The position numbers were made by a program, and so were the translations under genes. From positions 420,001 through 452,000 of the forward strand of contig CBDCNV010000001.1 of NCBI GenBank assembly GCA_965219535.1: a stretch of DNA of 32,000 bases. The letters are read 5' to 3'. Of this stretch, positions 2,997 to 28,519 are shown piece by piece; position 1 is the stretch's first letter, and each line of letters starts with the position of its first letter. The notes under the pieces were generated by a model. The model was not told where the DNA came from. It was given only the letters and a program-made list of their open reading frames with translations, and searched no databases. Source of the stretch: Opitutales bacterium (GTDB lineage: Bacteria; Verrucomicrobiota; Verrucomicrobiia; Opitutales; PNEW01).

Positions 2997-5039
2997 ATGA
3001 AGATAAACATTTTTCGCAGCTTTCGGATAGCGATCACGTTATTAGTTATGGCTTTCATTACTGCGGTATGGGGCTGCGGCGGGAACAGAGAAACCCAATC
3101 AAAAGAAGGAGCGGACAAACCTGAACGGGCCGCGGTCAATTTAGAAGGATTCAGTTTTATTTATCAAGGTCCGCCAGTTGCACATTTCAGTGAAGCGCCA
3201 GTTCTAGCGCAGCGCGTTGCCACGGGTGAACTCCCTCCGGTCGAAGATCGCTTACCCGACGAGCCCTTGATAATACCGCCCATAGAACGCATTGGCCAAT
3301 ACGGGGGTACCTGGCGCCGCGGTTTTACGGGGCTTGATACTAACAACATGGACCGGATAATCCATGATCACGTCATTTACTTTGACTTCGACGGCTACAC
3401 CCTGATGCCACACATCGCGAAAGGATGGGACATCAGCGAAGACGGGAGAACATTCACTTTCTATCTGCGGAAGGGCATGAAGTGGTCCGATGGCGCTCCG
3501 TTCACAGCCGATGACTTCGTTTTCGCCTTTGAAGATGTGACATTGAATAAAGATTTAAATCCGGTAAAACCCAGCCACGCGATAGTGGATGGGCAGCTCT
3601 GCAAATGTGAAAAGATAGATGAGACGACGATTCGCTATACCTTTCATAAATCTAATTATGTGTTCATCGAGAAAGTTGCTGGTTTATTTATCGGCGGCCA
3701 GTTCACTCGCGGAGGGGGCGCACCTCTCTACGCACCCCGGCATTATTTAAAGCAGTTTCTCCCGAAGTATACTCCTTTGGAAGAACTAAAAAACAGGGCG
3801 AAGGCGGCGGGGGATGAAAGTTGGAAGACATACTTCCTACGCATAGCTTCACCCCACAAGAACCGCGGCTTGCCGGTTGTCGGTCCATGGAAGATGGTTA
3901 CTCCGCTGACGAGTGAAATCTACTCTTTGGAACGCAATCCCTACTACTACGCCATCGATCCCGAAGGGAATCAGCTTCCCTATATCGATAAGATTGAAAT
4001 GCTTCTGTTTGAAGACGTGGAGGTGTTCAATGCACGTGCCATTGCCGGTGAGGTGGATATGCAACATCGCCATATCCTGCTAGACAAAGTCCCTCTGATC
4101 AAGCGTGAGTCAGACAAGGGTGACCACCGCCTACTCTTATGGCCTAATCTGGGCGGTTCTGACGCCATCATCTATGTTAACCAGACCTGGGTGGGAGATC
4201 CCGAAATAGTAAAGTGGCTGAGAAGCCGAGATTTCCGAAAGGCCCTCTCGCTTGCTATTGATCGGGAGGAGATAAACGAATTAATTTTTCTGGGCATCGG
4301 GAAGCCAAGAGCTTTCCTCCCATTACCCAATAACCCGTATTATCCCGGTCCAGAATATGAGAGAAAGAATGCGGTTCGAGACCTGGAGCAATCCAATACG
4401 ATCCTCGACGCACTCGGTTTGGATAAGAGGGACAGTGAAGGCTACCGCTTGCGTACGGATAACAGGGGTCGTCTCAATATTAGAATCTCAGTGGCTGGTC
4501 AGACGTTTGTAAATTTTGATGATATAGCTGAACTCCTCGTGAATCACTGGAAAGATGTCGGCCTAAACATAAAATTAAATATTGAAGCGGAAACTTTATA
4601 TGGCGTACGTGCTACAAACAACGAACACCAACTTAGCATGGGGGTTGCTGGGGGTTCTGAAAACCCGTGGACTTACCCAGTTATGACCATACCCGTTAGT
4701 ACCGGTGCTTTTGCCCCGCGCGTTGGCTCATGGTATATATCCGAAGGTAAAAAGGGTAAAGCACCTTCCGGCGGTCTAAAACGTTTAGTGGAAATCTATG
4801 AGGAGGGTAATAGTTTACCCAAAAAAATGCGCACGGAACTGGGAAAAGAATTATGGAGAATTCATTCAGACAACCTGTATGTAATTGGAACGGTGGCAAT
4901 CTCCCGCCATGAACGGGGTTGTCGTGGTGAAAAAACAATTTTCGCAATGTTCCCGATGTCGCTCCCAATAGCGCAACATTGCAATCACCGGGTATTGCCC
5001 GCCCCGAACAATTCTTTTTTGAGGGAGAGTGATCCGTAG
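2997..5039 (+). CDS. ABC-transporter family-5 (peptide/oligosaccharide/nickel type) solute-binding protein with no adjacent permease genes. The 3' end appears frameshifted, so it may be a pseudogene or carry assembly errors.
   Basis: 680-aa ORF. Signal peptide with Cys (MAFITAVWGCGG, possible lipobox). Size and internal patterns (GYTLMPHIAKGWDISEDGRTFTFYLRKGMKWSDGAPFTADDFVF, ERNPYYY, RKALSLAIDREEI) are typical of family-5 SBPs. After about 4896 the family-like sequence continues in the other two frames; see the finding at 4890..5039. Confidence 0.8.
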   Translation: MKINIFRSFRIAITLLVMAFITAVWGCGGNRETQSKEGADKPERAAVNLEGFSFIYQGPPVAHFSEAPVLAQRVATGELPPVEDRLPDEPLIIPPIERIGQYGGTWRRGFTGLDTNNMDRIIHDHVIYFDFDGYTLMPHIAKGWDISEDGRTFTFYLRKGMKWSDGAPFTADDFVFAFEDVTLNKDLNPVKPSHAIVDGQLCKCEKIDETTIRYTFHKSNYVFIEKVAGLFIGGQFTRGGGAPLYAPRHYLKQFLPKYTPLEELKNRAKAAGDESWKTYFLRIASPHKNRGLPVVGPWKMVTPLTSEIYSLERNPYYYAIDPEGNQLPYIDKIEMLLFEDVEVFNARAIAGEVDMQHRHILLDKVPLIKRESDKGDHRLLLWPNLGGSDAIIYVNQTWVGDPEIVKWLRSRDFRKALSLAIDREEINELIFLGIGKPRAFLPLPNNPYYPGPEYERKNAVRDLEQSNTILDALGLDKRDSEGYRLRTDNRGRLNIRISVAGQTFVNFDDIAELLVNHWKDVGLNIKLNIEAETLYGVRATNNEHQLSMGVAGGSENPWTYPVMTIPVSTGAFAPRVGSWYISEGKKGKAPSGGLKRLVEIYEEGNSLPKKMRTELGKELWRIHSDNLYVIGTVAISRHERGCRGEKTIFAMFPMSLPIAQHCNHRVLPAPNNSFLRESDP

Positions 5040-8785: not shown

Positions 8786-9049
8786 AATTTGTTTACATCC
8801 AGCCTTCAAATTAATAAACGAGTCATTACAAAGCCACTAAAAAGTTAAAATAGCAGCAGTGTTTTATTCTTTGGAATTTAAGTAGTTTAACATTAGCGTC
8901 TTAATTATAGATGCGAACTAATTCTTATAGCCGTGATACTTATTATAAAACCTGTTGTTTTAGATTGGAATTCTAATATAATGAAGATAAGAAGGATTAA
9001 GGCAGATTAAATATTTTATTGCGAAGACTAATCATAAAAGAGGTCTAAA

Positions 9050-10240: not shown

Positions 10241-10305
10241 GCATTATTAATTAATGCTCAGGGTATTGTGCCAAGTGCCGTTCAGCGACAGGTGTTTAAT
10301 GGATT

Positions 10306-10791
10306 ATGCCAATGAAACCGTTGAATATTATCGCTGCCTGTTCGGAGAATCGAGTTATCGGACGAGCAGGAAAGTTGCCTTGGAAAATAACAGAGGACTG
10401 GAATTACTTTCTTAACCAGACTAAGGGGGGCACCCTCATCTTTGGTCGCAAAGCTTTTGAGGAATTTGGCCACCCCTTCCCGGATCGTCAAACTATCGTG
10501 CTGACCCGAAATAGAGAATGGACAAGTAAAGATATAATCGTTGCAACTTCCCTGCAAGAAGGTTTGGACACGGCACAGAAACTCGAGGGTGAAATATGGA
10601 TTAGTGGAGGTCGGCATGTTTATGAACAGGCTATGCCAATGGCAGACAAACTTTACCTTACACTTATTCATGCTGAGGTTGAAGGAGATGCTTTTTTCCC
10701 CGCATGGGATTCCTTTTTTCCTAAAACTATTTCTCAATGTGCAAGTCGTAATGACAATTTTCGTTACACCTTTTTTGTATTTGAAAAATAA
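10306..10791 (+). CDS. folA: Dihydrofolate reductase
   Basis: 161 aa. LNIIAACSENRVIGRAGKLPWKITEDWNYF, LIFGRKAFEEFG and LYLTLIHAEVEGDAFFP form the classic DHFR pattern. Confidence 0.9.
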   Translation: MPMKPLNIIAACSENRVIGRAGKLPWKITEDWNYFLNQTKGGTLIFGRKAFEEFGHPFPDRQTIVLTRNREWTSKDIIVATSLQEGLDTAQKLEGEIWISGGRHVYEQAMPMADKLYLTLIHAEVEGDAFFPAWDSFFPKTISQCASRNDNFRYTFFVFEK

Positions 10792-10812
10792 TTTAACAAG
10801 AAGGGGAGTGCT

Positions 10813-11376
10813 TTGATAATTACAGGTGGTGCAGCTCGCGGGATTCGACTCAAGATTAGAAAGGCCGATTCCATTCGGCCAGCGATGGGTCGCATGCGGG
10901 AGGCGGTATTTTCCAGTCTTGGTCCCGGGATTACCGAGAGCGAGTTCCTGGATCTCTATGCCGGAAGTGGTGCCTATGGATTAGAGGCGCTTAGCAGGGG
11001 GGCTTCAGGTGGGGTATTTATTGAAAAAGATCATCGAACAATTGGTTATTTACATGAAAATATCTCTGCCGTGTGCAAATCACTCGGATTGAAACAGTCA
11101 CCTTGCGATGTTATCGAGATGGATGTTTTTAAATGGATACCGATAAATAAACAAAGATTTGATTTTATATTCGTCGATCCGCCTTATGACATCATCAATA
11201 AATGTATGGAATTAATTTTCGCGCTCGCACAATCTTGTCTTAGTAATAAAGCATCCTCGCGCTTAATATTTGAAGCGCCGGGAGAGTTAGTCTTAAAGGG
11301 GCAAGGTTGGGAACAAATGAAGAAATTGGGGAAAGGGCGCCATGAATCCACGGTGTCTCTTTTTCGACGCCTTTAG
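10813..11376 (+). CDS. rsmD: 16S rRNA (guanine966-N2)-methyltransferase
   Basis: 187 aa with a TTG start. GGAARGIRLK..RP..GRMREAVFS, motif I LDLYAGSGAYGLEALSRGA, and motif IV FIFVDPPY. Confidence 0.85.
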   Translation: MIITGGAARGIRLKIRKADSIRPAMGRMREAVFSSLGPGITESEFLDLYAGSGAYGLEALSRGASGGVFIEKDHRTIGYLHENISAVCKSLGLKQSPCDVIEMDVFKWIPINKQRFDFIFVDPPYDIINKCMELIFALAQSCLSNKASSRLIFEAPGELVLKGQGWEQMKKLGKGRHESTVSLFRRL

Positions 11377-11401
11377 TTAATAAACAAAACTGAGACTATA
11401 A

Positions 11402-12127
11402 CTAGTGAGGGCTATGGGTCTCAATTTTTGAAACCAGGATTGAAATTGCGGCAACCCCGGCAGTTTCTGTCCGAAGGACGCGCTGACCAAGATTATAGAA
11501 TGCAAATTCAGCACCGTGCAGCAGATCCCTCTCTTCTGTTGACCACCCACGTTCTGAACCGATTGCGATGACACTGGCAGGATGGTGTATTTTATAAGAA
11601 CCCAATTGTAACGTGGCTTCGTAATTATCAAGTGCGATACGGTCACTCTGCGTACTCAACTTCAATATACATTCGGCAAGCGAATCAAAATTGCAAACTT
11701 CAGGTATATGCGTAGTAAAAGCCTGTTCAGCACCGAGGTGTAGATGGCGTCGCCATTCGCCGGTACTCCAGAGGCGGCTGCGGCTGTAAGAGGGCTCCCC
11801 TTTGTCAGCTTGGAAAAACCAAATGGCGTCAACGCCTAAACTCGTCATATCCTGCAGGATTTTTCGCGCAGTTTGGGGTCGAGGCAGCCCTGCTATTAAA
11901 GTAATGGGGTAGGGCACCGGCGGTACATCACCCCATTCCATAGTCAAGTTCATGCCATCAGAATCATCCGAAATAATGCGCGCTTTTCCCCGCGGGCCGT
12001 TGGTTACACCGACGTCAAATTCCTGACCAATGCCCATTTTAAGTACCTTCCGGACATGTTCCGCGCGTGGATCATCAAACGGAATATTTAAGTGGGTGTA
12101 CTTCTCACAGAAGAGAATGAGATTCAT
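11402..12127 (-). CDS. rsmE: 16S rRNA (uracil1498-N3)-methyltransferase (SPOUT family)
   Basis: 241 aa. N-terminal PUA-like segment (DPRAEHVRKVLKMGIGQEFDV) and C-terminal IAIGSERGWSTEE...LGQRVLRTETAGVAAISIL, typical of RsmE. Confidence 0.85.
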   Translation of the reverse strand: MNLILFCEKYTHLNIPFDDPRAEHVRKVLKMGIGQEFDVGVTNGPRGKARIISDDSDGMNLTMEWGDVPPVPYPITLIAGLPRPQTARKILQDMTSLGVDAIWFFQADKGEPSYSRSRLWSTGEWRRHLHLGAEQAFTTHIPEVCNFDSLAECILKLSTQSDRIALDNYEATLQLGSYKIHHPASVIAIGSERGWSTEERDLLHGAEFAFYNLGQRVLRTETAGVAAISILVSKIETHSPH

Positions 12128-12436
12128 GGCATAAGAGTAATTATTTCTTATATTACATATTTTTGGATTTCGTGGATAGGGATTTCTTCTTTAGAATTCA
12201 GCAATAAACAGAGGGGAACAATAATGTTTTTCTCTCTTTGAAGAAACGGTCATAATAATACATCTATAATTGTGCAAGATGCTAGATATAAATGGGTTAA
12301 ATAAATTTCGATCGCTTGACTTAAGAGGGTTAATAGATTCATTTAAACTATAACTACAACACGTTTACCATCGTTGACATTAATCTGATTAAAGTAGTTA
12401 TTTAATCGTGCTCTTTCGGCCCGATAAGCTATCTCT

Positions 12437-14725
12437 ATGAAAGGAAATTATATTATGTGCTCGAAAAAAAATCTCTCCACCTTGTTGATATCACTGGTTT
12501 TCACCGTATGGTTATCCGCTCAGCCGCAATCGCTTGAAACCTTTTTCGATTTCGAAAATGAAACTGCCACAGGGACAGATTTTACTTTGGGCGTTGCCCC
12601 GTTTACCATCCGGGTTATTGGATTTACCCTCGAAACGGTGGATGATCCAGCCCTCGCTCATTCGGGGACCAAAGCTTTGGTCCTTGAAGCGGGTCAGGAA
12701 GGGAAAATTATTTTAGAAAGAGGCGCCAATTTACTCCAGTTTTATGCTGCTGAATCAACCGGTGGCGGCCGATTGGAGCTTAGAGATAGAAACCGATTTT
12801 TTTTAAGGGAAGGTGGGACGATCGAGGGATTGCCGACAAACATCAGTCCCGGCGCCAACCCCCCGCTTCAGAGTTTCATCGGTTTCTCAGGAGATATTAA
12901 TGATGCTGCAGACCTTAACTATACGAACGGTGTCCTGGAAATAAAAATAATCAACGTAAATGGACGGGCGGCCATCGACGATCTTGGTTTTTCTTATGTT
13001 GTGGGTCCCCCCAACAATACTGTTTATGAAGATTTTGCGAATATAGCTAACAGTCCTTATTTTAGAACACCGGGTAGTACCAGTGCCAATTCGAGATTAA
13101 TTTTCACCATCGGTGAGTCCCCTTACACCGCAACGTTTACCGGTGGCATTGCGGCTGTCTCAGGCGGAGGTTTCTTTAATCATACTATTCCTGATGGTGA
13201 AACACAGGGGGGAGGAGATTTTCCCCTCGTCCCCGGTGCATGGAGAGTTGAGGACTTATCTTTTGGAGGAAGTGGTTTAGGTGTTATTACTTTCGAAACC
13301 CCTGTCGCCAAAGTAGAATTTTATGCCGCTGTGTTCCTTGAGGAAGATGGAGAACTCCAGATTTTTGATGCTAATGATAATCTACTCACTTCAACCAAAG
13401 ATATACCCCTTAATATAAGTCACTTATTTGAAGCACCCTTTGATTATTTATCCTTTAATGCGGCGGAGTTGGGGGCGCCTGAAGGAATTGGGAAGATTCA
13501 TTATCTCAATTTGGATAAAGTATCTTTTCAAGGGAATGTGCTGCACAATGTTATTGATGATATTGGATTTACCCCGGTCGGTGCCCCCGGTAGTGGTTCC
13601 GAGGGACCGCCTCCCGTAGCCGGTCCCACCATTACCACCCAGCCCGTGAGCCAGGAAGTACAGTCCGGCACGGCTGTTGTTTTATCGGTAGCAGCGAGCG
13701 GTGACGATCTTAATTATCAGTGGTATACAGGTAATAGTGGTGACACTGCGAGTCCCGTTGCTGGGGCTACCGGCAGCACCTTAACGACCGGTGCCCTAAC
13801 GGTGAGTACCAACTTCTGGACGCAGGTAAGCAACGCAGGTGGAAGCGCTGACAGCGATACCGCCTCCATTACCGTAACCGCTCCACCGGTGCCTCTCGTT
13901 CTCGACGGCTCGGGCGATATCGCCGGTGAAAACATCCAGCATGCCAACGGTAATGTCTTCGATCAGATTTTACTCACCGGGGAGTTCGTCCAACTCCAGG
14001 CCAAGCCGGGACAGATCACCCGCGTCTCCTTCATGGACGAAAACGAGGATATTGTGCAGGTAGAATTTTCAGGTAATGGGACCTTTACCGTAACCCTGGA
14101 TCCGTCCACCTTCCTGCCCCCGGCCATACCCCCGCGCTACAACCAGCAGGTTGAGTACGTGACGGGCAAGCCCAGCGTGGTTATCGATGGAGCGGACGCC
14201 AATACCTTCTTCAGTATCTTCACCGTGGGGAGGATCAACGCGTTTAACCAGGCCCTCTTCCCCGAGGGACAGGTCTATGACGCACAAGCGGACGTGGCCC
14301 TCGTGGAAGTAACCAACTCCACGGGACTTGGAGGGGTGCAGTTATCGAACACCGTCTTCAGTGGAAGCACGGGCAAGGTCGGTGTCGATGCGCGCGGGGT
14401 ACCGATCGCGGTACGCTTAACCGTCGGCGACATTGATGCTGATGGCGACGCAGTCCCACACCTGTTATTCGGATCCGGATCCTTCACGGTACCGGCCGGC
14501 AATCCCGGCTTGCGAATTACGGGTGGTGACCTCTTGCAGACAAACGGTGCCGCAGTCGTGGTAGCGGTGAGTGGATCGACAACGACCGGGTTTGATACCC
14601 TGATCACGCAGAACAACTTCAAATCTGACGAAACGCCTCAGCCGACACTGAGTATCGATGCCACCTTCGCCAACGAAGATGGCGATGCGATCACGGTGAC
14701 GGTCGAAGAGATTACGATTGAGTGA
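12437..14725 (+). CDS. Secreted modular protein: signal peptide, two beta-sandwich-like head modules, Ig-like domain, and the shared ~275-aa C-terminal module ending in EITIE
   Basis: 762-aa ORF. An alternative ATG at 12455 is preceded by AAGGA. Hydrophobic N-terminus LSTLLISLVFTVWLSAQ. Ig-like segment ITTQPVSQEVQSGTAVVLSVAASGDDLNYQWYTGNSGD...ITV. The C-terminal 275 aa are highly similar to the C-termini of 21265..22752 and 26597..28519 and to the visible part of 1..1575. Confidence 0.9.
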   Translation: MKGNYIMCSKKNLSTLLISLVFTVWLSAQPQSLETFFDFENETATGTDFTLGVAPFTIRVIGFTLETVDDPALAHSGTKALVLEAGQEGKIILERGANLLQFYAAESTGGGRLELRDRNRFFLREGGTIEGLPTNISPGANPPLQSFIGFSGDINDAADLNYTNGVLEIKIINVNGRAAIDDLGFSYVVGPPNNTVYEDFANIANSPYFRTPGSTSANSRLIFTIGESPYTATFTGGIAAVSGGGFFNHTIPDGETQGGGDFPLVPGAWRVEDLSFGGSGLGVITFETPVAKVEFYAAVFLEEDGELQIFDANDNLLTSTKDIPLNISHLFEAPFDYLSFNAAELGAPEGIGKIHYLNLDKVSFQGNVLHNVIDDIGFTPVGAPGSGSEGPPPVAGPTITTQPVSQEVQSGTAVVLSVAASGDDLNYQWYTGNSGDTASPVAGATGSTLTTGALTVSTNFWTQVSNAGGSADSDTASITVTAPPVPLVLDGSGDIAGENIQHANGNVFDQILLTGEFVQLQAKPGQITRVSFMDENEDIVQVEFSGNGTFTVTLDPSTFLPPAIPPRYNQQVEYVTGKPSVVIDGADANTFFSIFTVGRINAFNQALFPEGQVYDAQADVALVEVTNSTGLGGVQLSNTVFSGSTGKVGVDARGVPIAVRLTVGDIDADGDAVPHLLFGSGSFTVPAGNPGLRITGGDLLQTNGAAVVVAVSGSTTTGFDTLITQNNFKSDETPQPTLSIDATFANEDGDAITVTVEEITIE

Positions 14726-15548: not shown

Positions 15549-16823
15549 GTGCCTGAAGAGTCTGCTATAGAGTGCGAATCCGCCGTGTATAAGGATACGC
15601 TTGTGCTCATTGTTTTCTCATTCATCCCGTCAAAGGGTGAGATGGTGAAATGGTATTGGACTCGTATTGCCGGTGTACCCTACCTTTTAAGAAACATCAT
15701 CAATATCCAACGTGGTGGGGGTAATAAAACATATTTGTATCATAGTGAGCAATTCGCACCTCTTAAAGAATTATGCCGTCTTGTTAATGACGATCCAAGA
15801 GTGCTAAACAAAACAGAGTGTATATCAGTGCCCGAGGATTTAGAACGCGTGCTTCGGAGCATGAAAAACATCCTTATCCTGAATGGCTCAGTCCTTCATC
15901 ACAGATTAGAAATCCAGAACGCTCTTTCATTATTCACTCAATATACCGTTACAGATAGAGATGAAAAAAAAGAAAGAGTTAGTATCGATAACTTACTCTC
16001 TCAATTCGATAAGCATGAAGATTTCAATGTTCAATGGTCTGAAAAGATTACTGCGATAAGCGTTGGTGATAAACCGGTATCCCCTTCAAACGAAAGTATA
16101 CGGATTCAATATTTGTCCGGCAGTAAGATTACGAAAATAACAACCGAAAATGATTTTCATAAAGAGCATATGCGTATCATGAAGTCTGGTGGCCTGGAAA
16201 CCGACAGCATGATAAACAGGTTATTTTCTCGTAGCGTATCACGATTCTTAACACGACTGGCCATTCATACGCCGGTAAGCCCTAATCAGGTCACTTTGTT
16301 AAGTTTTTTCCTTGGATTAATATCGACCTGGTTTTTTTTCCAAGGCGTTTATGGGATGAGCCTGGTAGGAGCGGTCATCCTGGTGATTTCTACTTGGATA
16401 GATGGTGTCGATGGTGAACTGGCTAGATTGACTTTCAGGGAATCTAAAATGGGAGCTAAATTGGATATCACCTTGGATTGTTTTGTAAATTACATCGTTT
16501 TCTTTTCGATTGGCGTGGGATTAACCCGTTCATCCGGGGACAACCTTTATGCTATTCTTGGTTTAGTCGCGGTTATTGGCAGTATTATTTCTTTTGTCTT
16601 TATGAGTTCTTTAATCTCAGAGAGCAAATCACCTGAACGACATGACAGTATTTCAATGGATAAGCGTCGTATGATTCAGGATAAAATAGCCAATCGGGAT
16701 TTTATTTTCATCCTGTTTTTACTCGCGCTTATTGATAGAACAGAAATATTCATCTGGCTCGCGGCAATCGGAGCCAATGTCTTTGCCCTTTATTCACTTT
16801 ACGCCAGGTGCATTGCCAAGTAG
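15549..16823 (+). CDS. CDP-alcohol phosphatidyltransferase family membrane protein with a ~230-aa soluble N-terminal extension
   Basis: DGVDGELARLTFRESKMGAKLDITLD matches D-x2-D-G-x2-A-R-x8-G-x3-D-x3-D exactly. Several hydrophobic helices follow residue ~235. The N-terminal part (LVLIVFSFIPSKGE..IAGVPYLLRNI) loosely resembles a nucleotidyltransferase fold but lacks the G-x-G-x-R loop. GTG start as in the track. Confidence 0.75.
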   Translation: MPEESAIECESAVYKDTLVLIVFSFIPSKGEMVKWYWTRIAGVPYLLRNIINIQRGGGNKTYLYHSEQFAPLKELCRLVNDDPRVLNKTECISVPEDLERVLRSMKNILILNGSVLHHRLEIQNALSLFTQYTVTDRDEKKERVSIDNLLSQFDKHEDFNVQWSEKITAISVGDKPVSPSNESIRIQYLSGSKITKITTENDFHKEHMRIMKSGGLETDSMINRLFSRSVSRFLTRLAIHTPVSPNQVTLLSFFLGLISTWFFFQGVYGMSLVGAVILVISTWIDGVDGELARLTFRESKMGAKLDITLDCFVNYIVFFSIGVGLTRSSGDNLYAILGLVAVIGSIISFVFMSSLISESKSPERHDSISMDKRRMIQDKIANRDFIFILFLLALIDRTEIFIWLAAIGANVFALYSLYARCIAK

Positions 16824-16900
16824 AGGATTTTTATCATCAAGAAATTGGAACGAAGGCCGAATTAGAGCGGCGGTAGGTGTTTATTAAATCGATGAAATAT

Positions 16901-17923
16901 TCAATTACTACCTTGCTTTTCTCTCGGTGCGCAAGCGCGCGGATTTTCAATCTCACGCTTTAATTGATCCATTCCCTCTTCGACAGAAATCTCAGGTTCA
17001 AAGTTAAGTTCATGACGAATTTTATCCATACACAGAGTACTTTGTGTCGTTAGCATATTTATGGCCGTATGTGTCAAGAAGGGACGGTCACCTGGTTTTA
17101 ACCGTTTGTGTGTACATTCAAATATGGAAGCCATGATGCGTGCTACGGGAAGTGGAATGGATTTTTTAACCGGTTTAGAACCGACTATTTTAGCCAGATG
17201 GTTGAAGAATTCATTAAATGAAATAGGCTCGTTATCCCCTACAATGTATCCTTGCCCAATCGCATTCGGGTGTTCCGAAGCAAGTAGTATCGCGTCGATC
17301 AAGTTATCGATGTAACAGGGATGGCAGGTGCCTTTACCGCCGGCGATGAGAAACATTCTGTTTTGGCGGATTAAGCGGAGAGGTTCTTCAACCCAACCGC
17401 TACCGAGGCCATAAACGACGGATGGTCGTAATACCACGACTGGTAATCCGTGATCGCTATGATATTTAAAGACGAGGACTTCACCTTCAATTTTCGATTG
17501 AGAATAAAAGTCTTTTCCGGGATTGTATGGTGTTTTGTCGTCAAAGTAAGCCGGTGAGGGAACACCGAATACTGCGATGGAACTGAGGTGAATAAATCGT
17601 ATTATCTTTCTTTCAACAGCTGCTTCTAATAGCCATTCTGTGCCTTGTACATTCGTTGAATGAAAAGTTTCTTCTGTGCCCCAATCCAAAACATGACCCG
17701 CACAATGAAAAACCCGTTCAACGCCATGCACGGCTTTATCAATTGAATCGCGGTTACCTAAATCCCCGATCACTATTTCTGCCGACTCTTTGGAAATGGG
17801 TGGCAGTTTATGTTCACTCTCAGGTCTGCAGAACAGTTTTACCTTACGCCCTTCTCTCAACAAGCGTTCGCTCAGATGACGGCCGATGAATCCGGTAGCA
17901 CCGGTTATTAGATCAGCATGCAT
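16901..17923 (-). CDS. NAD(P)-dependent epimerase/dehydratase (extended SDR)
   Basis: 340 aa. Rossmann motif GATGFIGRHL and catalytic YSQSK (YxxxK). Its start lies 2 nt after the stop of the upstream SDR gene, suggesting an operon. Confidence 0.8.
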   Translation of the reverse strand: MHADLITGATGFIGRHLSERLLREGRKVKLFCRPESEHKLPPISKESAEIVIGDLGNRDSIDKAVHGVERVFHCAGHVLDWGTEETFHSTNVQGTEWLLEAAVERKIIRFIHLSSIAVFGVPSPAYFDDKTPYNPGKDFYSQSKIEGEVLVFKYHSDHGLPVVVLRPSVVYGLGSGWVEEPLRLIRQNRMFLIAGGKGTCHPCYIDNLIDAILLASEHPNAIGQGYIVGDNEPISFNEFFNHLAKIVGSKPVKKSIPLPVARIMASIFECTHKRLKPGDRPFLTHTAINMLTTQSTLCMDKIRHELNFEPEISVEEGMDQLKREIENPRACAPREKQGSN

Positions 17924-17925
17924 AG

Positions 17926-18915
17926 TTAAATATACCCGTTGCTTCTAAACCATTGGATAGATCTTTCCATTGCTCCGTCGCAGGATATTGGATTATATCC
18001 CAGTTCATCTTTGGCTTTTGCGCTTTCATAGTATAAATATTTTCCAATCAGTCCCTGCATACCCACAGTTAATTTTGGCGCTCTGTGAGTAAAGTGATCA
18101 GCTATGCCCTCTTGACAATGCGCGACAAGGCTAAGTAGAGATTTTGGGATACGCACTTTCGGTCGTCCTTTTCCTGCAAGCTTCGCGATCTTCGACATAA
18201 ACTCTTTGTTAGAAAGATTATCACCAGCAAGAAGATACTGTTCACCCGCTCGACCTTTTTCTAGGGCTAACCATAATCCCTGAACGAGGTCATGGACATC
18301 GACAAAACAGGCGCCGCCATCTACCCAAACGGGCCACCATCCTTTACAGATATCAATGATCGGTTCACCGATTGGAGTTGGTCCGTAATCCATTTCACCA
18401 ATAGCGGAAGCGGGATTTACGATAACTACGGGTAAATCTTTTTCTTTTGCCCATCGTTTTATTTCATCTTCCCCAGCTTTCTTTGTCTCCGCATATAAAA
18501 ATCGCTTACCAGACATATTGAATTCCGATTTTTCATTACGCGTTACTGGCTGTTCAGATACTCCAAGTGTAATGCAACTGCTTACGTGGACCATTTTTTC
18601 TATACCCGTGGCCAGACTGGCAGCGGCTATATTTATTGGACCGAGGACATTCAGCTTGTGAAAGACATTGGGATCTCTCGACCAGTAACGGTTAAAACCG
18701 GCGAGATGAATGAGAACATCGCAGCTATTGAGAAAGGGATATAAACTCTCTGTATCAAGTACGTCACCCCAGAAAACTTGATGGGGCAAGTTTTCTAGAA
18801 GCGTATCCGACGTGCCTTGAAGAAGAAAGGCGATGACCTCGTGACCCAAAGAGGTGACGTAGCGGGTCAAATGATTTCCTATAAAACCATTTGCGCCTGT
18901 TATCCCTACTTTCAT
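17926..18915 (-). CDS. NAD(P)-dependent epimerase/dehydratase (extended SDR)
   Basis: 329 aa. GANGFIGNHL and YAETK motifs. Confidence 0.8.
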   Translation of the reverse strand: MKVGITGANGFIGNHLTRYVTSLGHEVIAFLLQGTSDTLLENLPHQVFWGDVLDTESLYPFLNSCDVLIHLAGFNRYWSRDPNVFHKLNVLGPINIAAASLATGIEKMVHVSSCITLGVSEQPVTRNEKSEFNMSGKRFLYAETKKAGEDEIKRWAKEKDLPVVIVNPASAIGEMDYGPTPIGEPIIDICKGWWPVWVDGGACFVDVHDLVQGLWLALEKGRAGEQYLLAGDNLSNKEFMSKIAKLAGKGRPKVRIPKSLLSLVAHCQEGIADHFTHRAPKLTVGMQGLIGKYLYYESAKAKDELGYNPISCDGAMERSIQWFRSNGYI

Positions 18916-19227
18916 AACGGTTATTGTCGATTGCCCTTTGCCGATTGTCGATGTCGGATTGACTGAACAGCGTTTGCAGGTCGACCTATAGACGTATACA
19001 ATCTATCCAAGTAGGATCAATTAATTCCTCATTTTTTTTGATATCTTGACCTTGCTGCAAGTCTATATAAAATAGATTCAAAGTCAGATAATGTCTTTCA
19101 ATCATTATTATTTAATTATTCGTTAAATCTGAAACGGTCAAAGCTTTGATCTCTATCGCTTATCCCCATAGTGTCATTAGAATATTTGTCTGCACTATTT
19201 TAAGACGATTACATAAAATAGTTTTAT

Positions 19228-21225
19228 ATGCAGAAAATTAAATCCCTTTTCGGATTATTGGTTTTTTCAGCCTGTGCCTGCACGGAATTGCTGGCGGTAG
19301 ATGTCATCTTTCTGGATATAGACCTGGAAATAGCAATTCGAGAGGTGCTGGAGAAACCTGACGGGCCAATAACAGACACGGACATGGCCCTGATAGAATC
19401 GCTTACTATCAATGAAAGAAGTATACTTAATCTAACTGGGCTGGAATATGCAGTTAACTTGGGCTACTTGGATCTTTCTAATAACCTCGTCATAGATACC
19501 AGCCCATTATCGGGGTTGGCTCAGCTTGAAACGCTATATTTGTTTGATAATCTAATCAGCGATTTCAGTCCATTGGCTGGGTTAACTCAACTGACATCCC
19601 TCGATCTTGAGTTTAACTTTATCAGTGACCTCAGTCCGTTGACAGGTTTAATCGAATTGACATTCCTGAATCTGGACAACAACGAGATCAGTAATCTTAA
19701 TCCCTTGGCTGGTTTAACGCAGCTGACTTTTCTTGATCTAGACAACAACCAGATAAGTGAACTCGGTCCATTAGCGGGTTTAATCCAATTGGACTTTCTG
19801 AGTCTAGACAACAACGAGATCAGTAATCTTAATCCCCTCACTGGTTTAACGCAGCTGACCGTCCTGTTTATTGACAATAGCCAGATCAACGATATCAGCC
19901 CGCTGTCTGGGTTGACTCAGATGGAGTCCCTGACCCTGTTGAATAATCAAATCAGTGATATCAGTCCCCTGGCAGGTTTAACCCAATTGGACTTCCTGTA
20001 TCTAGACAATAATCAGATTAGTAATCTTACCTCCCTCGCTGGCTTAACGAATTTGAGGATCCTGTTTATTGACAGTAGCCAGATCAGTGATATCAGTCCG
20101 TTGTCTGGCTTAACTAAGCTGGAGTCTCTGACCCTGTTTGATAATCAAATCAGCGATATCAGTCCCCTGGCAGGTTTAACTCAACTCACATTTCTGAGCC
20201 TAGGCGACAACCTGATCAGTGACCTCGGACCCTTATCGGGCTTAACCCAAATGTCATTACTGGGTCTGGACAACAACCAGATCAGTAATCTAAACCCCCT
20301 GGCTAGCTTAACGCAACTGACACTCCTGTATATTGACGGTAGCCAGATCAGCGATATCAGCCCGTTGTCTGGGTTGACTCAATTGGATACCCTGACCCTG
20401 GTTGATAATCAAATCAGCGATATCAGTCCCCTGGCAAGTTTAACCCAACTGGAAACTCTCAATCTTTCCACGAACCAAATAAACGATCTCAACCCCTTAG
20501 CCGGTCTAACGCAACTTACAGGATTATATCTTACCTCGAACGCAATCAGTGATACCAGCCCACTGGCCGGTTTATCTCAGTTGAGTGAATTATTACTTAC
20601 CGATAACAATATAAGTGCAATCGACTCCCTGGCCGGATTAAGCAGTCTCACCTACCTTGATCTCGAGGAAAACCTATTAGACATAAGCGAGAATTCCGAA
20701 GCACTGGATATAATCGAAAATCTTATTTCTAATTATTCCACAGTCGTTTTTTTCCAAACGCAAAATACGGATGTGCTATTTTTGCAGGTAAGCAAAGGGA
20801 CCTTCACAGATAAAATTCAGATTACATGGCAAAGTGTTGAAGGTGCGACTTACGATCTTTTCCGTAATACCACGCCTGACACCAAAGGAGCTATTTTATT
20901 ACAAGCCAATCTCAACGTAACTGTTTACGATGATATTACACCTCAATCAGGAGTCACTTACTATTATTGGTTAGCGATTAAGATCAACGGGGAAACGATC
21001 AGTATATCCAATACGGATAGTGGCTATCGAGCACAAGCGCTTGTCGGCATTGGCGCATGGGGTGATGATGATAAAGGTCAGTCTACAATACCCGAAGAGC
21101 TGACTGAAGTGATCCAGGTTGATGCCGGATCCGCGCATAGTATAGCATTACAGTCTAACGGCACGGTCGAAGTCTTTGGAGATAACAGCCTTGATCAATT
21201 GGACATTCCTGGAAATCTCACATGA
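19228..21225 (+). CDS. Leucine-rich-repeat protein: signal peptide or possible lipobox, about 20 x 22-aa LRRs, an Fn3/Ig-like domain, and the first RCC1-like blade. It is the N-terminal part of a gene interrupted by an in-frame TGA.
   Basis: 665-aa ORF. N-terminus MQKIKSLFGLLVFSACAC. Repeats fit LxLxxNxIsDisPLaGLTQLxx. Then QITWQSVEGATYDLFRN...YYYWLAIK, then AWGDDDKGQSTIPEELTEVIQVDAGSAHSIALQSNGTVEVFGDNSLDQLDIPGNLT followed by the stop. Confidence 0.85.
   Translation: MQKIKSLFGLLVFSACACTELLAVDVIFLDIDLEIAIREVLEKPDGPITDTDMALIESLTINERSILNLTGLEYAVNLGYLDLSNNLVIDTSPLSGLAQLETLYLFDNLISDFSPLAGLTQLTSLDLEFNFISDLSPLTGLIELTFLNLDNNEISNLNPLAGLTQLTFLDLDNNQISELGPLAGLIQLDFLSLDNNEISNLNPLTGLTQLTVLFIDNSQINDISPLSGLTQMESLTLLNNQISDISPLAGLTQLDFLYLDNNQISNLTSLAGLTNLRILFIDSSQISDISPLSGLTKLESLTLFDNQISDISPLAGLTQLTFLSLGDNLISDLGPLSGLTQMSLLGLDNNQISNLNPLASLTQLTLLYIDGSQISDISPLSGLTQLDTLTLVDNQISDISPLASLTQLETLNLSTNQINDLNPLAGLTQLTGLYLTSNAISDTSPLAGLSQLSELLLTDNNISAIDSLAGLSSLTYLDLEENLLDISENSEALDIIENLISNYSTVVFFQTQNTDVLFLQVSKGTFTDKIQITWQSVEGATYDLFRNTTPDTKGAILLQANLNVTVYDDITPQSGVTYYYWLAIKINGETISISNTDSGYRAQALVGIGAWGDDDKGQSTIPEELTEVIQVDAGSAHSIALQSNGTVEVFGDNSLDQLDIPGNLT
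19402..20721 (+). repeat. Tandem 66-bp coding repeats (about 20 LRR units) with higher-order 132-bp and ~200-bp periodicity
   Basis: The LRR units are in frame and contiguous. For example, 19675..19728 and 19807..19860 (offset 132 bp) share perfectly identical blocks of 30 nt and 20 nt. The blocks starting near 19863, 20064 and 20330 are also near-identical. Confidence 0.9.
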
Positions 21226-21264
21226 GTAATCGCCGTCGCCGCCGGTTATTTTCATAATTTAGCT

Positions 21265-22752
21265 TTGAAGGAAGACGGTAGGGTGGTCGCCTGGGGTTGG
21301 AATACTAACGGTCAGACGAATGTGCCCACGAATTTGGAAGATGTCAAACAGGTATCCGGTGGTGGTGATTTCAGTCTTGCTTTAATTGGTGATGGGACGG
21401 TGAGAGCTTGGGGTAATAATTTCGCACATCAGACCGAAGTGCCGAAAGGGCTTGCCGATGTAAAACAGGTGTCAGCGGGGGGATCGCACGCGCTCGCCTT
21501 GAAAGAAGATGGCACGGTTGTAGCATGGGGAAATAATGCAGATGGTCAGGCAACGGTGCCGTTCGGACTACGCGATGTAGTAGCAGTTGCTGCTGGTAAA
21601 TCACACAGTTTAGCATTAAAAGCTGACAGCACGATCGTTTCCTGGGGCAGCAATAACCGCGGACAACTTGATTTCCCTGGAGTATTTAACAGTCCCTCCA
21701 AGCAAGGTATTTCTGCGCAGTTTAATGCCTCTAGCGTTGTTTCCATTGCCGCAGGATTTAATCACAACCTGGCCCTGGATGCTGAAGGAAACGTCGTTGC
21801 CTGGGGAGATAATACATTCAGCCAGGCGACGGTTCCTGAAGCACTTACAGGAGTAGAAAATATTGCTGCCGGGGGTCGGCATAATATTGCCTTGTTTGAG
21901 TCTGCTGCTGTTGCTGAGAGTATTATACTCGATGGCTCGGGGATAATCGCAGGACAGGATATCCAGCATTCCAACGGAAATATCTTTGATCAGGTCCTGC
22001 TCACCGGAGAGTTTATTCAGCTTCAAGCCAAGCCGGAACAGATTACAAGGGTATCCTTCATGGATGAAGATGAGGACATTGTGCAGGTAGAGTTCTCAGG
22101 AAGCGGAAACTTTACCGTAACCCTGGATCCAGTTAGCTATTTACCTTCTGCTTTGCCAGCGCGTTATAACCAACAGGTCGAATATGTTAGAGGTAAGCCG
22201 AGCATCCTAATCGAAGGCGCCGACGCTACTACTTTCTTCAGTATTTTCACCGTTGGTAGGATCAACGCGGTGAACCAGGCATTGTTTCCGGTCGGTCAAG
22301 TTTATGATGCCGAAGCCGACGTGACCCGGGTAGAAGTGATCAACTCAGTGGGAATCGGGGGAATGCAAATGTCGAATACCGTATTTTCGGGTAGCACGGG
22401 GAAGATTGGTGTTGATGCCCGAGGGGTACCTGTTGCTGTGCGTATAACGATTGGAGACATCAGTGCCAGTGGCGGCGCTGTTCCTTATTTAATGTTTGGT
22501 TCAGGATCTTTCACCTTGCCCGCTGGTAATTCGGGATTGCGAATAACGGGGGGCGACTTGGTTCAGGCAAACGGTGCCTCGATCGTTGTTGCAGAGAGTG
22601 GATCGACGACACCAGGATTTGAGACCCTTATCATGCAGAATAATGTTAAGTCGGATAGCACCCCTCAACCAACTCAGAGCAACGGGGCATCATTTATTAA
22701 TGAGGATAATGCCGCGATCAACGTGACAGTGGATGAGATAACGATCGAATAA
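21265..22752 (+). CDS. RCC1-repeat protein with the shared C-terminal module. It is the C-terminal part of the interrupted LRR-RCC1 gene and has no signal peptide of its own.
   Basis: 495-aa ORF in the same frame as 19228..21225, with a TTG start placed inside an RCC1 blade. About 6 RCC1-like blades (VVAWGxNxxGQxxVP...V.AGxxHSLAL). The C-terminal ~275 aa match the shared module and end in DEITIE. Confidence 0.8.
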   Translation: MKEDGRVVAWGWNTNGQTNVPTNLEDVKQVSGGGDFSLALIGDGTVRAWGNNFAHQTEVPKGLADVKQVSAGGSHALALKEDGTVVAWGNNADGQATVPFGLRDVVAVAAGKSHSLALKADSTIVSWGSNNRGQLDFPGVFNSPSKQGISAQFNASSVVSIAAGFNHNLALDAEGNVVAWGDNTFSQATVPEALTGVENIAAGGRHNIALFESAAVAESIILDGSGIIAGQDIQHSNGNIFDQVLLTGEFIQLQAKPEQITRVSFMDEDEDIVQVEFSGSGNFTVTLDPVSYLPSALPARYNQQVEYVRGKPSILIEGADATTFFSIFTVGRINAVNQALFPVGQVYDAEADVTRVEVINSVGIGGMQMSNTVFSGSTGKIGVDARGVPVAVRITIGDISASGGAVPYLMFGSGSFTLPAGNSGLRITGGDLVQANGASIVVAESGSTTPGFETLIMQNNVKSDSTPQPTQSNGASFINEDNAAINVTVDEITIE

Positions 22753-22885
22753 AGTGGATAGGCGTTCGATTATCTGGTACTCGTTTGGGGATCAACTATA
22801 GTCTAGCAGTAGCGAGGCTCTGTCGGACTATCCAAAGGTGGTTGTGAGCCCTTCGGCTATTGATGCTCTGCGATCACTGTTCGAC

Positions 22886-22959
22886 TGGTGCGGGTGGGGA
22901 GAATCGAACTCCCGTAGCCAGCTTGGAAGGCTGGAGTTTTACCACTAAACTACACCCGC
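22886..22959 (-). tRNA. tRNA-Gly (anticodon UCC), CCA encoded
   Basis: The minus strand reads GCGGGTG-TA-GTTT-AGTGGTA-AAAC-T-CCAGC-CTTCCAA-GCTGG-CTAC-GGGAG-TTCGATT-CTCCC-CACCCGC-A-CCA. All four stems are perfectly paired, and it is 74 nt long. Confidence 0.93.
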
Positions 22960-23170
22960 TTGGACCAAGTGTTCATATTTCGCAATTATTCCCGGGGGTG
23001 GTCAAGATTGAATGTTATCTTAGATAAAAGTTGGTTCCAATGATCTTCGTCTTCGTCAAGGAAGACGGGGTTCAGGTGTTGGGTGTCGGAGTCTAGGGAG
23101 TAAGCTATGGGTTAAATTACAAGCTTCGTCTTCGTCTGCCTCTTCGTCTGTAATAGAGCTTCGGTTATTC

Positions 23171-23205
23171 TATACGCAATGGAGGGACACACTCCATTGC
23201 GTATA
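23171..23205. repeat. Perfect 14-bp-stem hairpin with loop GGACACA
   Basis: TATACGCAATGGAG-GGACACA-CTCCATTGCGTATA. The stem-loop junction reads AGGGACAC, the same 8-mer found in the loop region at 2848..2855. Confidence 0.75.
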
Positions 23206-23410
23206 CTTTAAAATGTTGTTTACGGCCACGACGGAGCGTGGCCCTCCAGAAAATATATAATGAGGATGGAGCATCATAGTACATAGACCTCTAGAAAAAG
23301 AAAAAATAGAAAGGCACGCTCCGTAAATCCGCAGAAACGAAGACGAAGGGACGAAGACAAACATTATCTTCGTATTACCCCATTAATAATTAAGTAAAAG
23401 TATGTGAAAT

Positions 23411-23443
23411 AAAAAACCCACTTCGGAAAGGCGATAGTGGGGG
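23411..23443 (-). terminator. Probable rho-independent terminator of the 23475..24062 gene
   Basis: On the minus strand: CCCACT-A-TCG-CCTTTC-CGA-AGTGGG followed by TTTTTTATTT. The stem is about 9 bp with a 1-nt bulge, and it lies about 30 nt downstream of the stop at 23475. Confidence 0.6.
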
Positions 23444-23474
23444 CTCATCTAAAATAATTTGGACTGAGGTCAAA

Positions 23475-24062
23475 TTATAATTTCTTGCGAACACGAGTTC
23501 TTCTCGTGGGGACCTGTGGTCTTTTCTTTTTCTTGATCGCTTCCAAATCATTTTTTGAAATTTGTGATAGTTGCTGGAACAGATCCTTTCTTCTTCTTCT
23601 CTCAGTATCAGGGAGTTGATTAATATTGGTCATGTTCGTCGGGTGAATGGTTTTAGCTAAAGAAATCTTCTGCTGAAACCCGTCTTTCGTAACAACAACT
23701 GTATAATTGAGTGGATCGTAATCGACTATTGTCATGTCCTCATAACTTTCGTTCATGCCCACCCAAAAAGCATCGTTGCTATTTTTATCTTGGAGACAAA
23801 AAATATATTCTCCGTCCAACTTTACAATCCCTCGCAGATCCAGGTTGCTGAGAGGAATACCAGGCTGATTGCTATTACTTTTAGTCGAACCTACTTTATT
23901 TTGATCAAAACCAGTTGGAATAAATGGTGAATTCGTGGTCAAATTTTGAATTTCTTCGGCTTTGACGTATTCCAATGCATAAACCTGCCCATGCAGAAAG
24001 GTTACTGGTATCAGGGCCACCAACAGAAATTTTTTTATGAATACTGGTTTAATGCTTCGCAT
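23475..24062 (-). CDS. Hypothetical secreted protein with a basic C-terminal tail
   Basis: 195-aa ORF. Signal peptide FLLVALIPVTFLHGQVYA. The central LDLRGIVKLDGEYIFCLQD...MTIVDYDPLNYTVVVTKDGFQQKISL weakly resembles the small beta-domain pattern of PilP/GspC-type proteins (speculative). The C-terminus is KKKKRPQVPTRRTRVRKKL. Confidence 0.5.
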   Translation of the reverse strand: MRSIKPVFIKKFLLVALIPVTFLHGQVYALEYVKAEEIQNLTTNSPFIPTGFDQNKVGSTKSNSNQPGIPLSNLDLRGIVKLDGEYIFCLQDKNSNDAFWVGMNESYEDMTIVDYDPLNYTVVVTKDGFQQKISLAKTIHPTNMTNINQLPDTERRRRKDLFQQLSQISKNDLEAIKKKKRPQVPTRRTRVRKKL

Positions 24063-26396: not shown

Positions 26397-26596
26397 CGAA
26401 TTTTAAGAAACTAAAGAGTGTAGCCGCTGTCTCCAACGAAGCAAACTTAGAATTATTACGCCCTGACTTTAAAACGTGTTAATTTCTGCTTTTGAAATTA
26501 AATGTAGATTATTAAAGGAGTCTTTTTTTGTTAGTTTAAAGATGGCTTGCCACATTTTATCACTTTGATATAAGTAATCTTTTGAATATACAGGGT

Positions 26597-28519
26597 ATGA
26601 AATTTATTAAAAATAAAATAATACGCGTTTTCATTTTAATCTCTGCTTTGTTTTTTATCTCGGAACTACCGGGATTCGCACAACCAAAAGCGCCCCCCAC
26701 TGCGCCCCCGGTTATAATAAATGATCAATCTATAGCTGTTAATCCGAAGGGTGAAATTCAAGCGGCGGCAACTCAATATTCGATTGGTGACCCAACGGCT
26801 GAAGAGCAGCTTGTTTTAGAATTTATAAATCGCGCGCGCGCTGATGCCAACGCGGAGGCACAGAGGTTAGTTACGACGACAGATGAAGATGTATTAAGCG
26901 CGATAGATTTTTTCGGAGTCGATCTCGGTGTCGTGGTCAACCAGTTTGCGACTCTCACGCAAACGCTTCCGCCGCTCTCCATGAATGCGCAACTCACAAC
27001 CGCCGCGAGATTGCACAGCCAGGACATGTTCAATAATGTATTTCAAGGACATTTTAGTTCAGATGATCCGGTATCACCGAATGAGCCGGGAGATAGCAGT
27101 GGGGACCGCGCGAGACATCAAGGATACACTTTCATGAATTTAGGGGAAAATGTTTTTTCATTTGCTCGATCAGTTTTTGAATCGCATGCGGCATTTGAAA
27201 TTGATTGGGGTTTTACTCCGACTGGCATTCAAGATCCACCCGGACATCGAACCAACATTCACGGGTCTGCATTTCGGGAGGCTGGGATTGGTATCGTTCT
27301 TGGAACAAATAGTTCAGGGGATGACTCGGTGGGGCCTATACTAATCACCCATGATTTCGGTGTTCAGTTAATCGGAGCTACCCCTTTTATTACAGGTGTT
27401 ACCTACGACGATCAAAATGGAAACGCCTTTTATGATTTAGGTGAAGGATTGGGTGGCATTAATGTTGACGTCAATGGCTCTGATTTTTTTGCCGTGACTG
27501 TGACAACGGGTGGCTACTCTGTTCCCGTGCCGGGAAACGGCAATTATTCGGTGACATTTTCCAGTCCATCAATAACCGATCAGACAACCCAGGTTGTCAT
27601 ATCCAATTCTGAAAATAAAAAGCTCGATTATACGCCACAAGCAGCAGGCAGTAATGGTGGAAATGGAAGTGAGCCTGAACCTAATGCGCTGATTATTGGA
27701 GGTACGGGGGATATCGCGGGAGAGGACATCATGCACCCGAATGGGAATGTCTTCGACCAGGTCCTGCTCACCGGACAAAGCATTCAGCTTCAAGCCAAGA
27801 CGGGGCAGATTACGCGCGTCTCTTTCATGGACGAAGACGAGGATATCGTTCAGGTAGAGTTCTCTGGAAACGGAACTTTTACTGTGACCCTGGATCCAGC
27901 CACCTTCCTGCCACCAGCCATTCCCCCGCGCTACAACCAGGCAGTAGAGTATGTAACGGGGAAACCGAGCGTGGTTATCGATGGTGCGGATTCCAATACT
28001 TTCTTCAGTATCTTTACCGTGGGGATGATCAATGCGGTGAACCAGGCTTTGTTCCCCGCGGGTCAGGTCTATGACGCTGAAGCGGACGTGACCCTGGTAG
28101 AAGTGACCAATTCCACGGGGATGGGCGGGATGCAGCTTTCAAACACTGTATTTAGTGGTAGTTCAGGTAAGGTTGGCTTGGATGCGCGAGGAGTGCCGAT
28201 TGCAGTACGCCTGACTGTAGGCGATATTGATGCATCGGGCAGTGCGATACCACACCTGCTTTTTGGGTCGGGGTCCTTCACGGTGCCTGCCGGCAACCCC
28301 GGTTTGCGTATCACTGGAGGAGACTTGGATCAAACGAATAATGCATCGATCGTGATCGCGGAAAGCGGATCGACGACTCCCGGATTTGAGACTTTGATCT
28401 TTCAGAACAACTTCAAGTCTGACAATACACCTCAGCCAACGCAGAACAACGCGGCCACTTTTGTCAATGAGGATGGAGTGGAAATCACCAAACCCGTCGA
28501 CGAGATTACGATTGAGTAA
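26597..28519 (+). CDS. Secreted modular protein: signal peptide, CAP/SCP/PR-1-like domain, a small beta-sandwich (carboxypeptidase-regulatory-like) domain, and the shared C-terminal module
   Basis: The track ORF starts with TTG at 26582, but the ATG at 26597 (MKFIKNKIIRVFILISALFFISELPGFAQ) is preferred. CAP-like: EEQLVLEFINRARADANAEA, PLSMNAQLTTAARLHSQDM, GHFS, GENV, PPGHRTNI. Then GVTYDDQNGNAFYDLGEGLGGINVDVNG..GGYSVPVPGNGNYSVTF. The C-terminal ~275 aa match the shared module and end in DEITIE. Confidence 0.85.
   Translation: MKFIKNKIIRVFILISALFFISELPGFAQPKAPPTAPPVIINDQSIAVNPKGEIQAAATQYSIGDPTAEEQLVLEFINRARADANAEAQRLVTTTDEDVLSAIDFFGVDLGVVVNQFATLTQTLPPLSMNAQLTTAARLHSQDMFNNVFQGHFSSDDPVSPNEPGDSSGDRARHQGYTFMNLGENVFSFARSVFESHAAFEIDWGFTPTGIQDPPGHRTNIHGSAFREAGIGIVLGTNSSGDDSVGPILITHDFGVQLIGATPFITGVTYDDQNGNAFYDLGEGLGGINVDVNGSDFFAVTVTTGGYSVPVPGNGNYSVTFSSPSITDQTTQVVISNSENKKLDYTPQAAGSNGGNGSEPEPNALIIGGTGDIAGEDIMHPNGNVFDQVLLTGQSIQLQAKTGQITRVSFMDEDEDIVQVEFSGNGTFTVTLDPATFLPPAIPPRYNQAVEYVTGKPSVVIDGADSNTFFSIFTVGMINAVNQALFPAGQVYDAEADVTLVEVTNSTGMGGMQLSNTVFSGSSGKVGLDARGVPIAVRLTVGDIDASGSAIPHLLFGSGSFTVPAGNPGLRITGGDLDQTNNASIVIAESGSTTPGFETLIFQNNFKSDNTPQPTQNNAATFVNEDGVEITKPVDEITIE

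Follow-up and report, generated by a model that had tools for sequence, protein, structure and literature searches.

Why should a single in-frame stop codon divide what otherwise reads as one long gene for an exported protein? The question arises in the genome of an uncultured Opitutales bacterium, where we analysed a 32,000-nucleotide stretch of contig CBDCNV010000001.1 (positions 420,001 to 452,000; hereafter the window). An open reading frame (ORF) at 19228..21225 starts with ATG, encodes 665 amino acids (aa) and ends at a TGA (21223-21225), after which the same frame stays open to a TAA at 22750-22752, for a total of 1174 sense codons. The initial annotation had described two ORFs lying in one frame and parted by this TGA alone, and re-translation confirmed that description, with the junction running from ...DQLDIPGNLT through the stop to VIAVAAGYFHNLALKEDGRVVAWG.... 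We conclude, with a probability of roughly 0.85, that the TGA is a genuine and recent loss-of-function nonsense allele, or young pseudogene, and that it is one of several independent disruptions of this gene. A fresh nonsense mutation or pseudogene is therefore the favoured member of the explanations first put forward, given that the ancestral codon is GGA, the TGA is reproducible, and signals of recoding are absent.

When the stop is read through, the 1174-aa product comprises a leader, approximately 20 leucine-rich repeats (LRRs), an FN3-like module, a seven-blade RCC1 propeller, and a C-terminal domain (CTD) of ~280 aa (Table 1); we refer to it as the LRR-RCC1 gene. Judged by eye from the sequence, residues 1 to ~23 form a signal- or lipoprotein-like leader (MQKIKSLFGLLVFSACAC, with a lipobox-like FSAC), and the downstream fragment has no signal peptide. 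The internalin-like LRRs are 22 residues each, with a 66-nt period in the DNA, and occupy roughly 19390-20710. Within this region the 66-nt repeat family spans 19481-20602, Pfam LRR_4 matches 17 stretches (2e-91), and LRR_8 is also strong. The FN3-like module of ~85 aa (about 20791-21036) was placed from a weak match to the N-terminal region of PelI (E 0.087) together with reading of the sequence. At its C-terminus the protein ends in ...VDEITIE and has no LPXTG motif. Membership of the class 1 internalins (InlA-like) was considered and rejected, as the NCBIfam internalin_A-like LRR model NF033189 scored 311.6 bits, far under its cutoff of 1600 bits, the LPXTG motif is missing, and the type of LRR is all that is shared.

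The TGA falls between the second and third of the seven WG/FG blade motifs. Because the Pfam RCC1_2 match covers residues 628-655 of the upstream piece and resumes at residue 1 of the downstream piece, the stop lies inside the RCC1 propeller region. The downstream piece matches RCC1_2 (3.5e-56, 5 stretches) and WD40_RLD (3.7e-49), and the bit scores for RCC1_2 (186, cutoff 22), WD40_RLD (168, cutoff 150) and RCC1 (51.8, cutoff 21.7) all pass. With repeats above their gathering scores and seven blades, the region belongs to the RCC1-like propellers, but it is complete only with the TGA read through; each fragment by itself would have too few blades for a closed propeller. The frame continuity across the TGA is not due to chance, since five orthologous loci cross the position with a Gly codon. 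Together with the RCC1_2 matches that flank the stop, these loci uphold the earlier view of a single gene that is split within its RCC1 part.

What did the gene look like before the stop arose? Homologue searches with the full-length query were flooded by generic LRR proteins, and orthologues were found with a second query from which the LRRs had been removed. A 4.49-Mb chromosome (OY829953.1, L003), 94.5% identical to the window in nucleotides over a shared ~20 kb, carries one intact ORF of 1282 aa that aligns collinearly across the stop position. Further syntenic loci were found in L084 and L085, and in a relative of ~82% identity (L001). In codon alignments, all four of these sequences have GGA at the position of the TGA. 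Gly is also encoded there in a JGI contig (L088), whose gene is open over 1172 codons as far as the contig end, and in proteins P0249 and P0244. Because four relatives have GGA and the others Gly, the lesion is a change of GGA (Gly) to TGA through a single G-to-T transversion at 21223. The residue, guessed at first to have been Gly or Ser, is Gly in L003, L084, L085 and L001, and in these four loci the gene is continuous at the codon rather than consisting of two genes, as expected of the single ancestral gene of ~1170 aa, split by one substitution, that the initial annotation had proposed. Gene length across the orthologues otherwise varies by whole LRR units (in-frame differences of 330 nt and 66 nt). 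In a comparison of the window, L003, L084, L085 and L001, both the window and L001 lack a 330-nt block of five repeats, and L001 alone has an additional 66-nt unit; we therefore attribute these differences to recombination within the 66-nt repeat array.

We next consider whether the TGA could be an artefact, with the true sequence carrying GGA. Reproducibility was judged from assemblies and contigs. The identical TGA is present in ENA ERZ25072670 ctg253071_8x (L002/L081), in ENA ERZ25067264 ctg833823_5x (L083), and in a Logan contig of run ERR13605531 (L082), each of which has 0-2 other differences from the window. Since L002 (27927 and 30427) and L083 (21428 and 24473) each have their own two substitutions relative to the window, they are not copies of one consensus. 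An artefact would find some encouragement in the low coverage of these public long-read contigs, 5x and 8x according to their names, and in the frameshifts of another window gene, one of them in an A6 run. However, the lesion is a substitution and not the homopolymer indel typical of long-read errors, and it is repeated in three more assemblies with different accessions and a different assembler (Logan). Sequencing or assembly error, one of the explanations offered initially, is thus effectively excluded, and we give a true GGA at this position hardly any credence.

The window-type assemblies differ from one another by about 1e-4, and the TGA occurs in 4/4 of them; it is fixed, or at least dominant, across those available. 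When JGI metagenome contigs were scanned for the exact sequence, with NNN in place of the codon, there were 0 matches. Protein searches returned no window-type protein of ~1174 aa, a weak result, as neither the 665-aa product nor the intact L003 protein is in that index. The suggestion of a population-level on/off variant finds no support in the near-clonal population of the window and stands at the level of the clade, in which the sister species has one intact locus and others that are lesioned differently.

A genuine TGA might still be decoded. Functional read-through or recoding, by near-cognate tRNA-Trp, a Gly suppressor or selenocysteine (Sec), would keep the full-length protein in use, perhaps as a minor isoform under regulation. 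Among bacterial stop codons UGA is generally the leakiest, the site is a variable inter-blade loop (E, D, S or G in the other blades) that should tolerate Trp or Gly, and there is no surplus of nonsynonymous change downstream of the stop. Signals of recoding, however, are absent. No stem-loop resembling a selenocysteine insertion sequence (SECIS) was found, the minimum free energy of the 88 nt at 21213-21300 being -22.2, where shuffled sequences average -22.5 (z 0.10), and an Rfam scan at E<=10 over 18500-23500 returned the neighbouring tRNA-Gly and chance-level matches only. The orthologues have Gly at the aligned position in all cases, and neither Cys nor Sec in any. A selenoprotein gene with UGA as Sec was discarded on these grounds, namely the fold and the lack of Cys or Sec in the orthologues.

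The usage of TGA elsewhere in the window likewise argues against recoding. Five other ORFs terminate with TGA, among them 12437..14725, where it follows the C-terminal ...EEITIE that is conserved in the family, and only one in-frame TGA occurs among roughly 24 window ORFs. A scan of the window found no tRNA with anticodon UCA; with five ORFs ending in TGA, this led us to reject an alternative code in which UGA is read as Gly (code 25) or Trp (code 4). The sole tRNA in the window, tRNA-Gly(TCC) at 22886-22959 on the minus strand, lies 134 nt beyond the LRR-RCC1 gene, which is encoded on the plus strand. It reads the ancestral GGA and has a normal anticodon, hence it is no UGA suppressor, and its proximity to the gene looks coincidental. 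The TAG stops and frameshifts that relatives carry at other sites of the gene (Table 1) are, moreover, beyond rescue by any single recoding mechanism. As far as can be read from the sequence, nothing points to programmed read-through, which we regard as improbable, although background leakiness of UGA may occur.

The age of the stop was estimated from constraint on either side of it. The pairwise ratio of nonsynonymous to synonymous substitution rates (dN/dS) between the window and L003 is 0.20 upstream of the stop and 0.14 downstream, and the corresponding values for L003 and L001, neither of which is lesioned in the downstream part, are 0.21 and 0.13. When codon changes were polarised with L001, the synonymous to nonsynonymous counts were 47:22 upstream and 28:8 downstream on the window branch, and 38:19 and 16:7 on the L003 branch. 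Neither the dN/dS values nor the polarised changes show any relaxation of constraint beyond the stop. Because the window-branch changes downstream are still mostly synonymous, the mutation appears recent, and most of the roughly 5% divergence would have arisen while the gene was intact. It is older than the very shallow diversity (about 1e-4) of the window-type assemblies.

If the TGA is such a recent nonsense allele, translation from the ATG at 19228 would stop at codon 666 and yield an exported 665-aa product in which leader, LRR array and FN3-like module are all retained, with fewer than two of the seven RCC1 blades and no CTD. The propeller could not close in this truncated product, and the function of the CTD would be lost. 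The 508 codons beyond the stop would either go untranslated or yield a little protein that starts at a fortuitous GTG and lacks an export signal, such that the full-length surface protein would be lost save for background read-through of the UGA. The start codons available to the downstream ORF fit its earlier description as a piece with neither a signal peptide nor a convincing start. The TTG at 21265 is its merely mechanical first start codon, and public gene calls begin it instead at GTG 21283 (P0121, 489 aa). The LKEDG..VVAWG motif that holds this GTG and the AAGGA preceding it recurs in other blades and in intact orthologues, which argues against the GTG being a dedicated start. A promoter and terminator scan around the LRR-RCC1 gene gave results at chance level.

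We then asked whether the gene is damaged in relatives as well. Local identity among L003, L084, L085 and L086 is 97.5-97.8%, which makes them effectively one species; the gene is intact in L003 and carries different lesions in the others (Table 1). The lesion sites in relatives range from codon 134 through the sixth blade. In L084, the +2 shift converts GGGTGG to a G9 tract within the RCC1 'SAGGSH' motif; the counterpart in the window is G6 and that in L001 is G7, and the tract could be a slippage-prone site. The paralogous gene of L087 has PhyH and SSF neighbours and so lies in another genomic context; its contig is another one from the sample of L002, with similar coverage, and may or may not stem from the same genome. 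With window proteins as queries, the 12-15 neighbouring genes all gave single, stop-free matches in L003 and L084. Across the window, L003 and L084, all three lesions fall in one gene, although it accounts for about 21% of the codons compared; by rough arithmetic this corresponds to roughly P~0.01.

Table 1. The split LRR-RCC1 gene of the window and the state of its counterparts in related sequences.
Feature	Location	Strand	Description
Upstream fragment	19228..21222	+	665 codons; leader, LRR array, FN3-like module, RCC1 blades 1-2
Premature TGA stop	21223..21225	+	GGA (Gly) changed to TGA via G>T at 21223
Downstream fragment	21226..22752	+	508 codons plus TAA; RCC1 blades 3-7 and CTD; collinear with intact orthologues
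Fortuitous internal start	21268..21285	+	GTG 21283 with Shine-Dalgarno-like AAGGA 10 nt upstream, inside coding sequence of repeat motif LKEDGRVVAWG
Seven-blade RCC1-like propeller region	21037..21894	+	bisected by the stop; seven WG/FG...GQ motifs and Pfam
CTD, ~280 aa	21913..22749	+	also at the C-termini of ORFs 12437..14725 and 26582..28519
Gene in L003	OY829953.1 chromosome		intact
Gene in L084	ENA ERZ25766727 ctg362391_21x_c, 5398-9254		5.05-Mb circular, 21x; GAG>TAG at codon 134 and +2 shift at G9 tract
Gene in L085			9.5x; T7>T6 frameshift
Gene in L086			4x; two frameshifts
Gene in L001			3x; TAG at codon 351, within an LRR whose consensus residue there is Q
Paralogous LRR-RCC1-CTD gene in L087	ENA ERZ25072670 ctg255800_7x_l, 3753-7092		three in-frame stops and one frameshift

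These lesions bear on a further explanation, in which the truncation itself was selected because it turns a CTD-bearing or anchored protein into a free exported LRR protein with a function of its own, as has been proposed for some truncated InlA. The upstream fragment does retain the leader and the entire LRR array, all four window-type assemblies carry the allele, and dN/dS upstream of the stop is still 0.20. However, the recency of the mutation explains the low dN/dS equally well, and the lesions of the relatives are scattered, some lying as early as codon 134 (L084) and codon 351 (L001), so no single truncated product has been kept across lineages. We consider a selected truncation unlikely, though less so than read-through, and the scatter of lesions therefore speaks for plain loss of function rather than for the preservation of one truncated product.

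Several observations weigh against recurrent, recent loss of this gene as we describe it. The enrichment of P~0.01 concerns one neighbourhood of roughly 20 kb and not whole genomes. Long-read consensus errors could account for the homopolymer frameshifts in L085 (9.5x) and L086 (4x), and perhaps for the G9 tract of L084; L001 (3x) has several further lesioned genes, which makes its TAG less telling. An in-frame stop is also present in the CAP-CTD gene of L085, the orthologue of 26582..28519, and the window gene at 2997..5039, which resembles a substrate-binding protein, requires two shifts of frame towards its end. With this second gene apparently frameshifted, the pseudogene load may be raised in general. 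As the evidence consists of assemblies, a minority GGA allele may be present in the population, and the unrelaxed constraint downstream of the stop is also expected from continued function via read-through. The secure independent events are the TGA of the window and the TAG of L084, and there is some support for recurrence at the level of the clade, from one neighbourhood and partly via low-coverage assemblies.

A similar pattern is known from Listeria monocytogenes inlA, in which many independent natural point mutations create premature stops at different positions and truncate an LRR surface protein (PMC12427964, PMC10299213). As in these alleles, the protein studied here is exported and has an N-terminal array of internalin-type 22-residue LRRs, and various premature stops across lineages remove its C-terminal part; internalin_A is also the best NCBIfam resemblance of its LRR part. 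Unlike InlA, it carries an RCC1 propeller and a CTD in place of an LPXTG motif, its host is an uncultured member of the Opitutales, and it is known here from sequence alone. With several independent, recent disruptions among close relatives, the LRR-RCC1 gene likewise appears currently to be dispensable or counter-selected in this clade.

The split gene also resembles young bacterial pseudogenes in general, with one inactivating substitution relative to intact orthologues, constraint that is not relaxed, and gene callers that report two ORFs. It differs from them in having been struck independently in several close relatives while its neighbours are intact, which, for this one neighbourhood, exceeds the expectation of random decay. 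Phase-variable contingency loci offer a second comparison, in that a surface-type gene is on or off among close strains and L084 is out of frame at a G9 tract. However, the lesion of the window is a substitution in the non-repetitive sequence ACA TGA GTA that would not revert by slippage, and in most strains the G tract, whose codons specify the conserved RCC1 'AGG' motif, is short. A slippage-type phase-variable locus was consequently dismissed for the window; the G9 shift occurs in L084 only and is maybe a consensus error. Finally, with RCC1_2, RCC1 and WD40_RLD over their thresholds and strong LRR_4 and LRR_8 matches, the protein is akin to the bacterial RCC1 (RLD) and LRR proteins described as 'eukaryotic-like', and among its homologues are numerous bacterial RCC1 proteins, ~1000 aa long, that carry Ig-like modules. 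Among the matches listed, however, the combination of LRRs, an FN3-like module, RCC1 and the CTD is found only in close Opitutales relatives.

The CTD is common to three exported window proteins, and related Opitutales genomes contain many copies (dozens) each. Searched against Pfam, NCBIfam and PDB sequences, it matched nothing, permissive thresholds included, yet at E<=1e-3 it is found in 711 representative clusters, mostly at the C-terminal end of the protein. An AlphaFold2 (AF2) model of the domain is all-beta with a pLDDT of 97, and Foldseek found no match to this model in PDB or BFVD. The CTD is possibly an undescribed surface or sorting domain.

The surrounding genes vary in other ways. 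The window gene at 2997..5039 (plus strand) encodes an SBP_bac_5-like substrate-binding protein of an ATP-binding cassette (ABC) transporter, and its last ~50 codons need two frame changes at ~4890-4940. The path runs from frame 1 ('...LYVIGTVAIS') through frame 2 ('SPAMNGVVVVK') to frame 3 ('KNNFRNVPDV...PEQFFFEGE', then stop), with the second change at an A6 run. It is either a second damaged gene or the product of homopolymer consensus errors; a look-up of 2997..5039 in public assemblies, as a check on the reproducibility of the frameshifts, gave no record. An extra gene of ~1 kb from the LPG_synthase_TM family is present in L003 (4804-5808), L085 (2861-3769) and L001 (5589-6542), where it sits between a CDP-alcohol phosphatidyltransferase gene and two epimerase genes; the window (about 16823-16901) and L084 are without it. 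In L085, a guanylate-cyclase/TPR gene is inserted downstream of the LRR-RCC1 gene (10151-12166), and the CAP-CTD gene with the in-frame stop is at 16183-17965. A sponge-symbiont habitat, suggested by the style of the names of the metagenome-assembled genomes, was dropped, since the closest JGI contigs have identifiers that look like those of seawater metagenomes, and we claim no host association.

For annotation, the ORFs of 665 aa and 489 aa are to be merged and flagged as one disrupted gene. The comparison has also exposed a widespread CTD, found in 711 clusters, with a confidently predicted fold and no family or structural match. A single young pseudogene would be routine, and the added value of this locus lies in the different lesions that close relatives carry in the same exported gene while its neighbours are intact. 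We tentatively raise the possibility, doubtful at present, that in an uncultured Opitutales clade recent and independent losses recur at the LRR-RCC1-CTD gene as a hot spot, with intact and broken alleles within a species. If so, the TGA of the window would be one instance of a natural parallel, outside pathogens, to the premature stop codon alleles of inlA, and the recurrence might arise because an internalin-like protein at the cell surface is under negative or fluctuating selection, for instance where phages use it as a receptor or where grazers or a host recognise it. The different lesions, found amid intact neighbours, therefore make this gene a candidate target of cell-surface selection in an uncultured, marine-type lineage of the Verrucomicrobiota.

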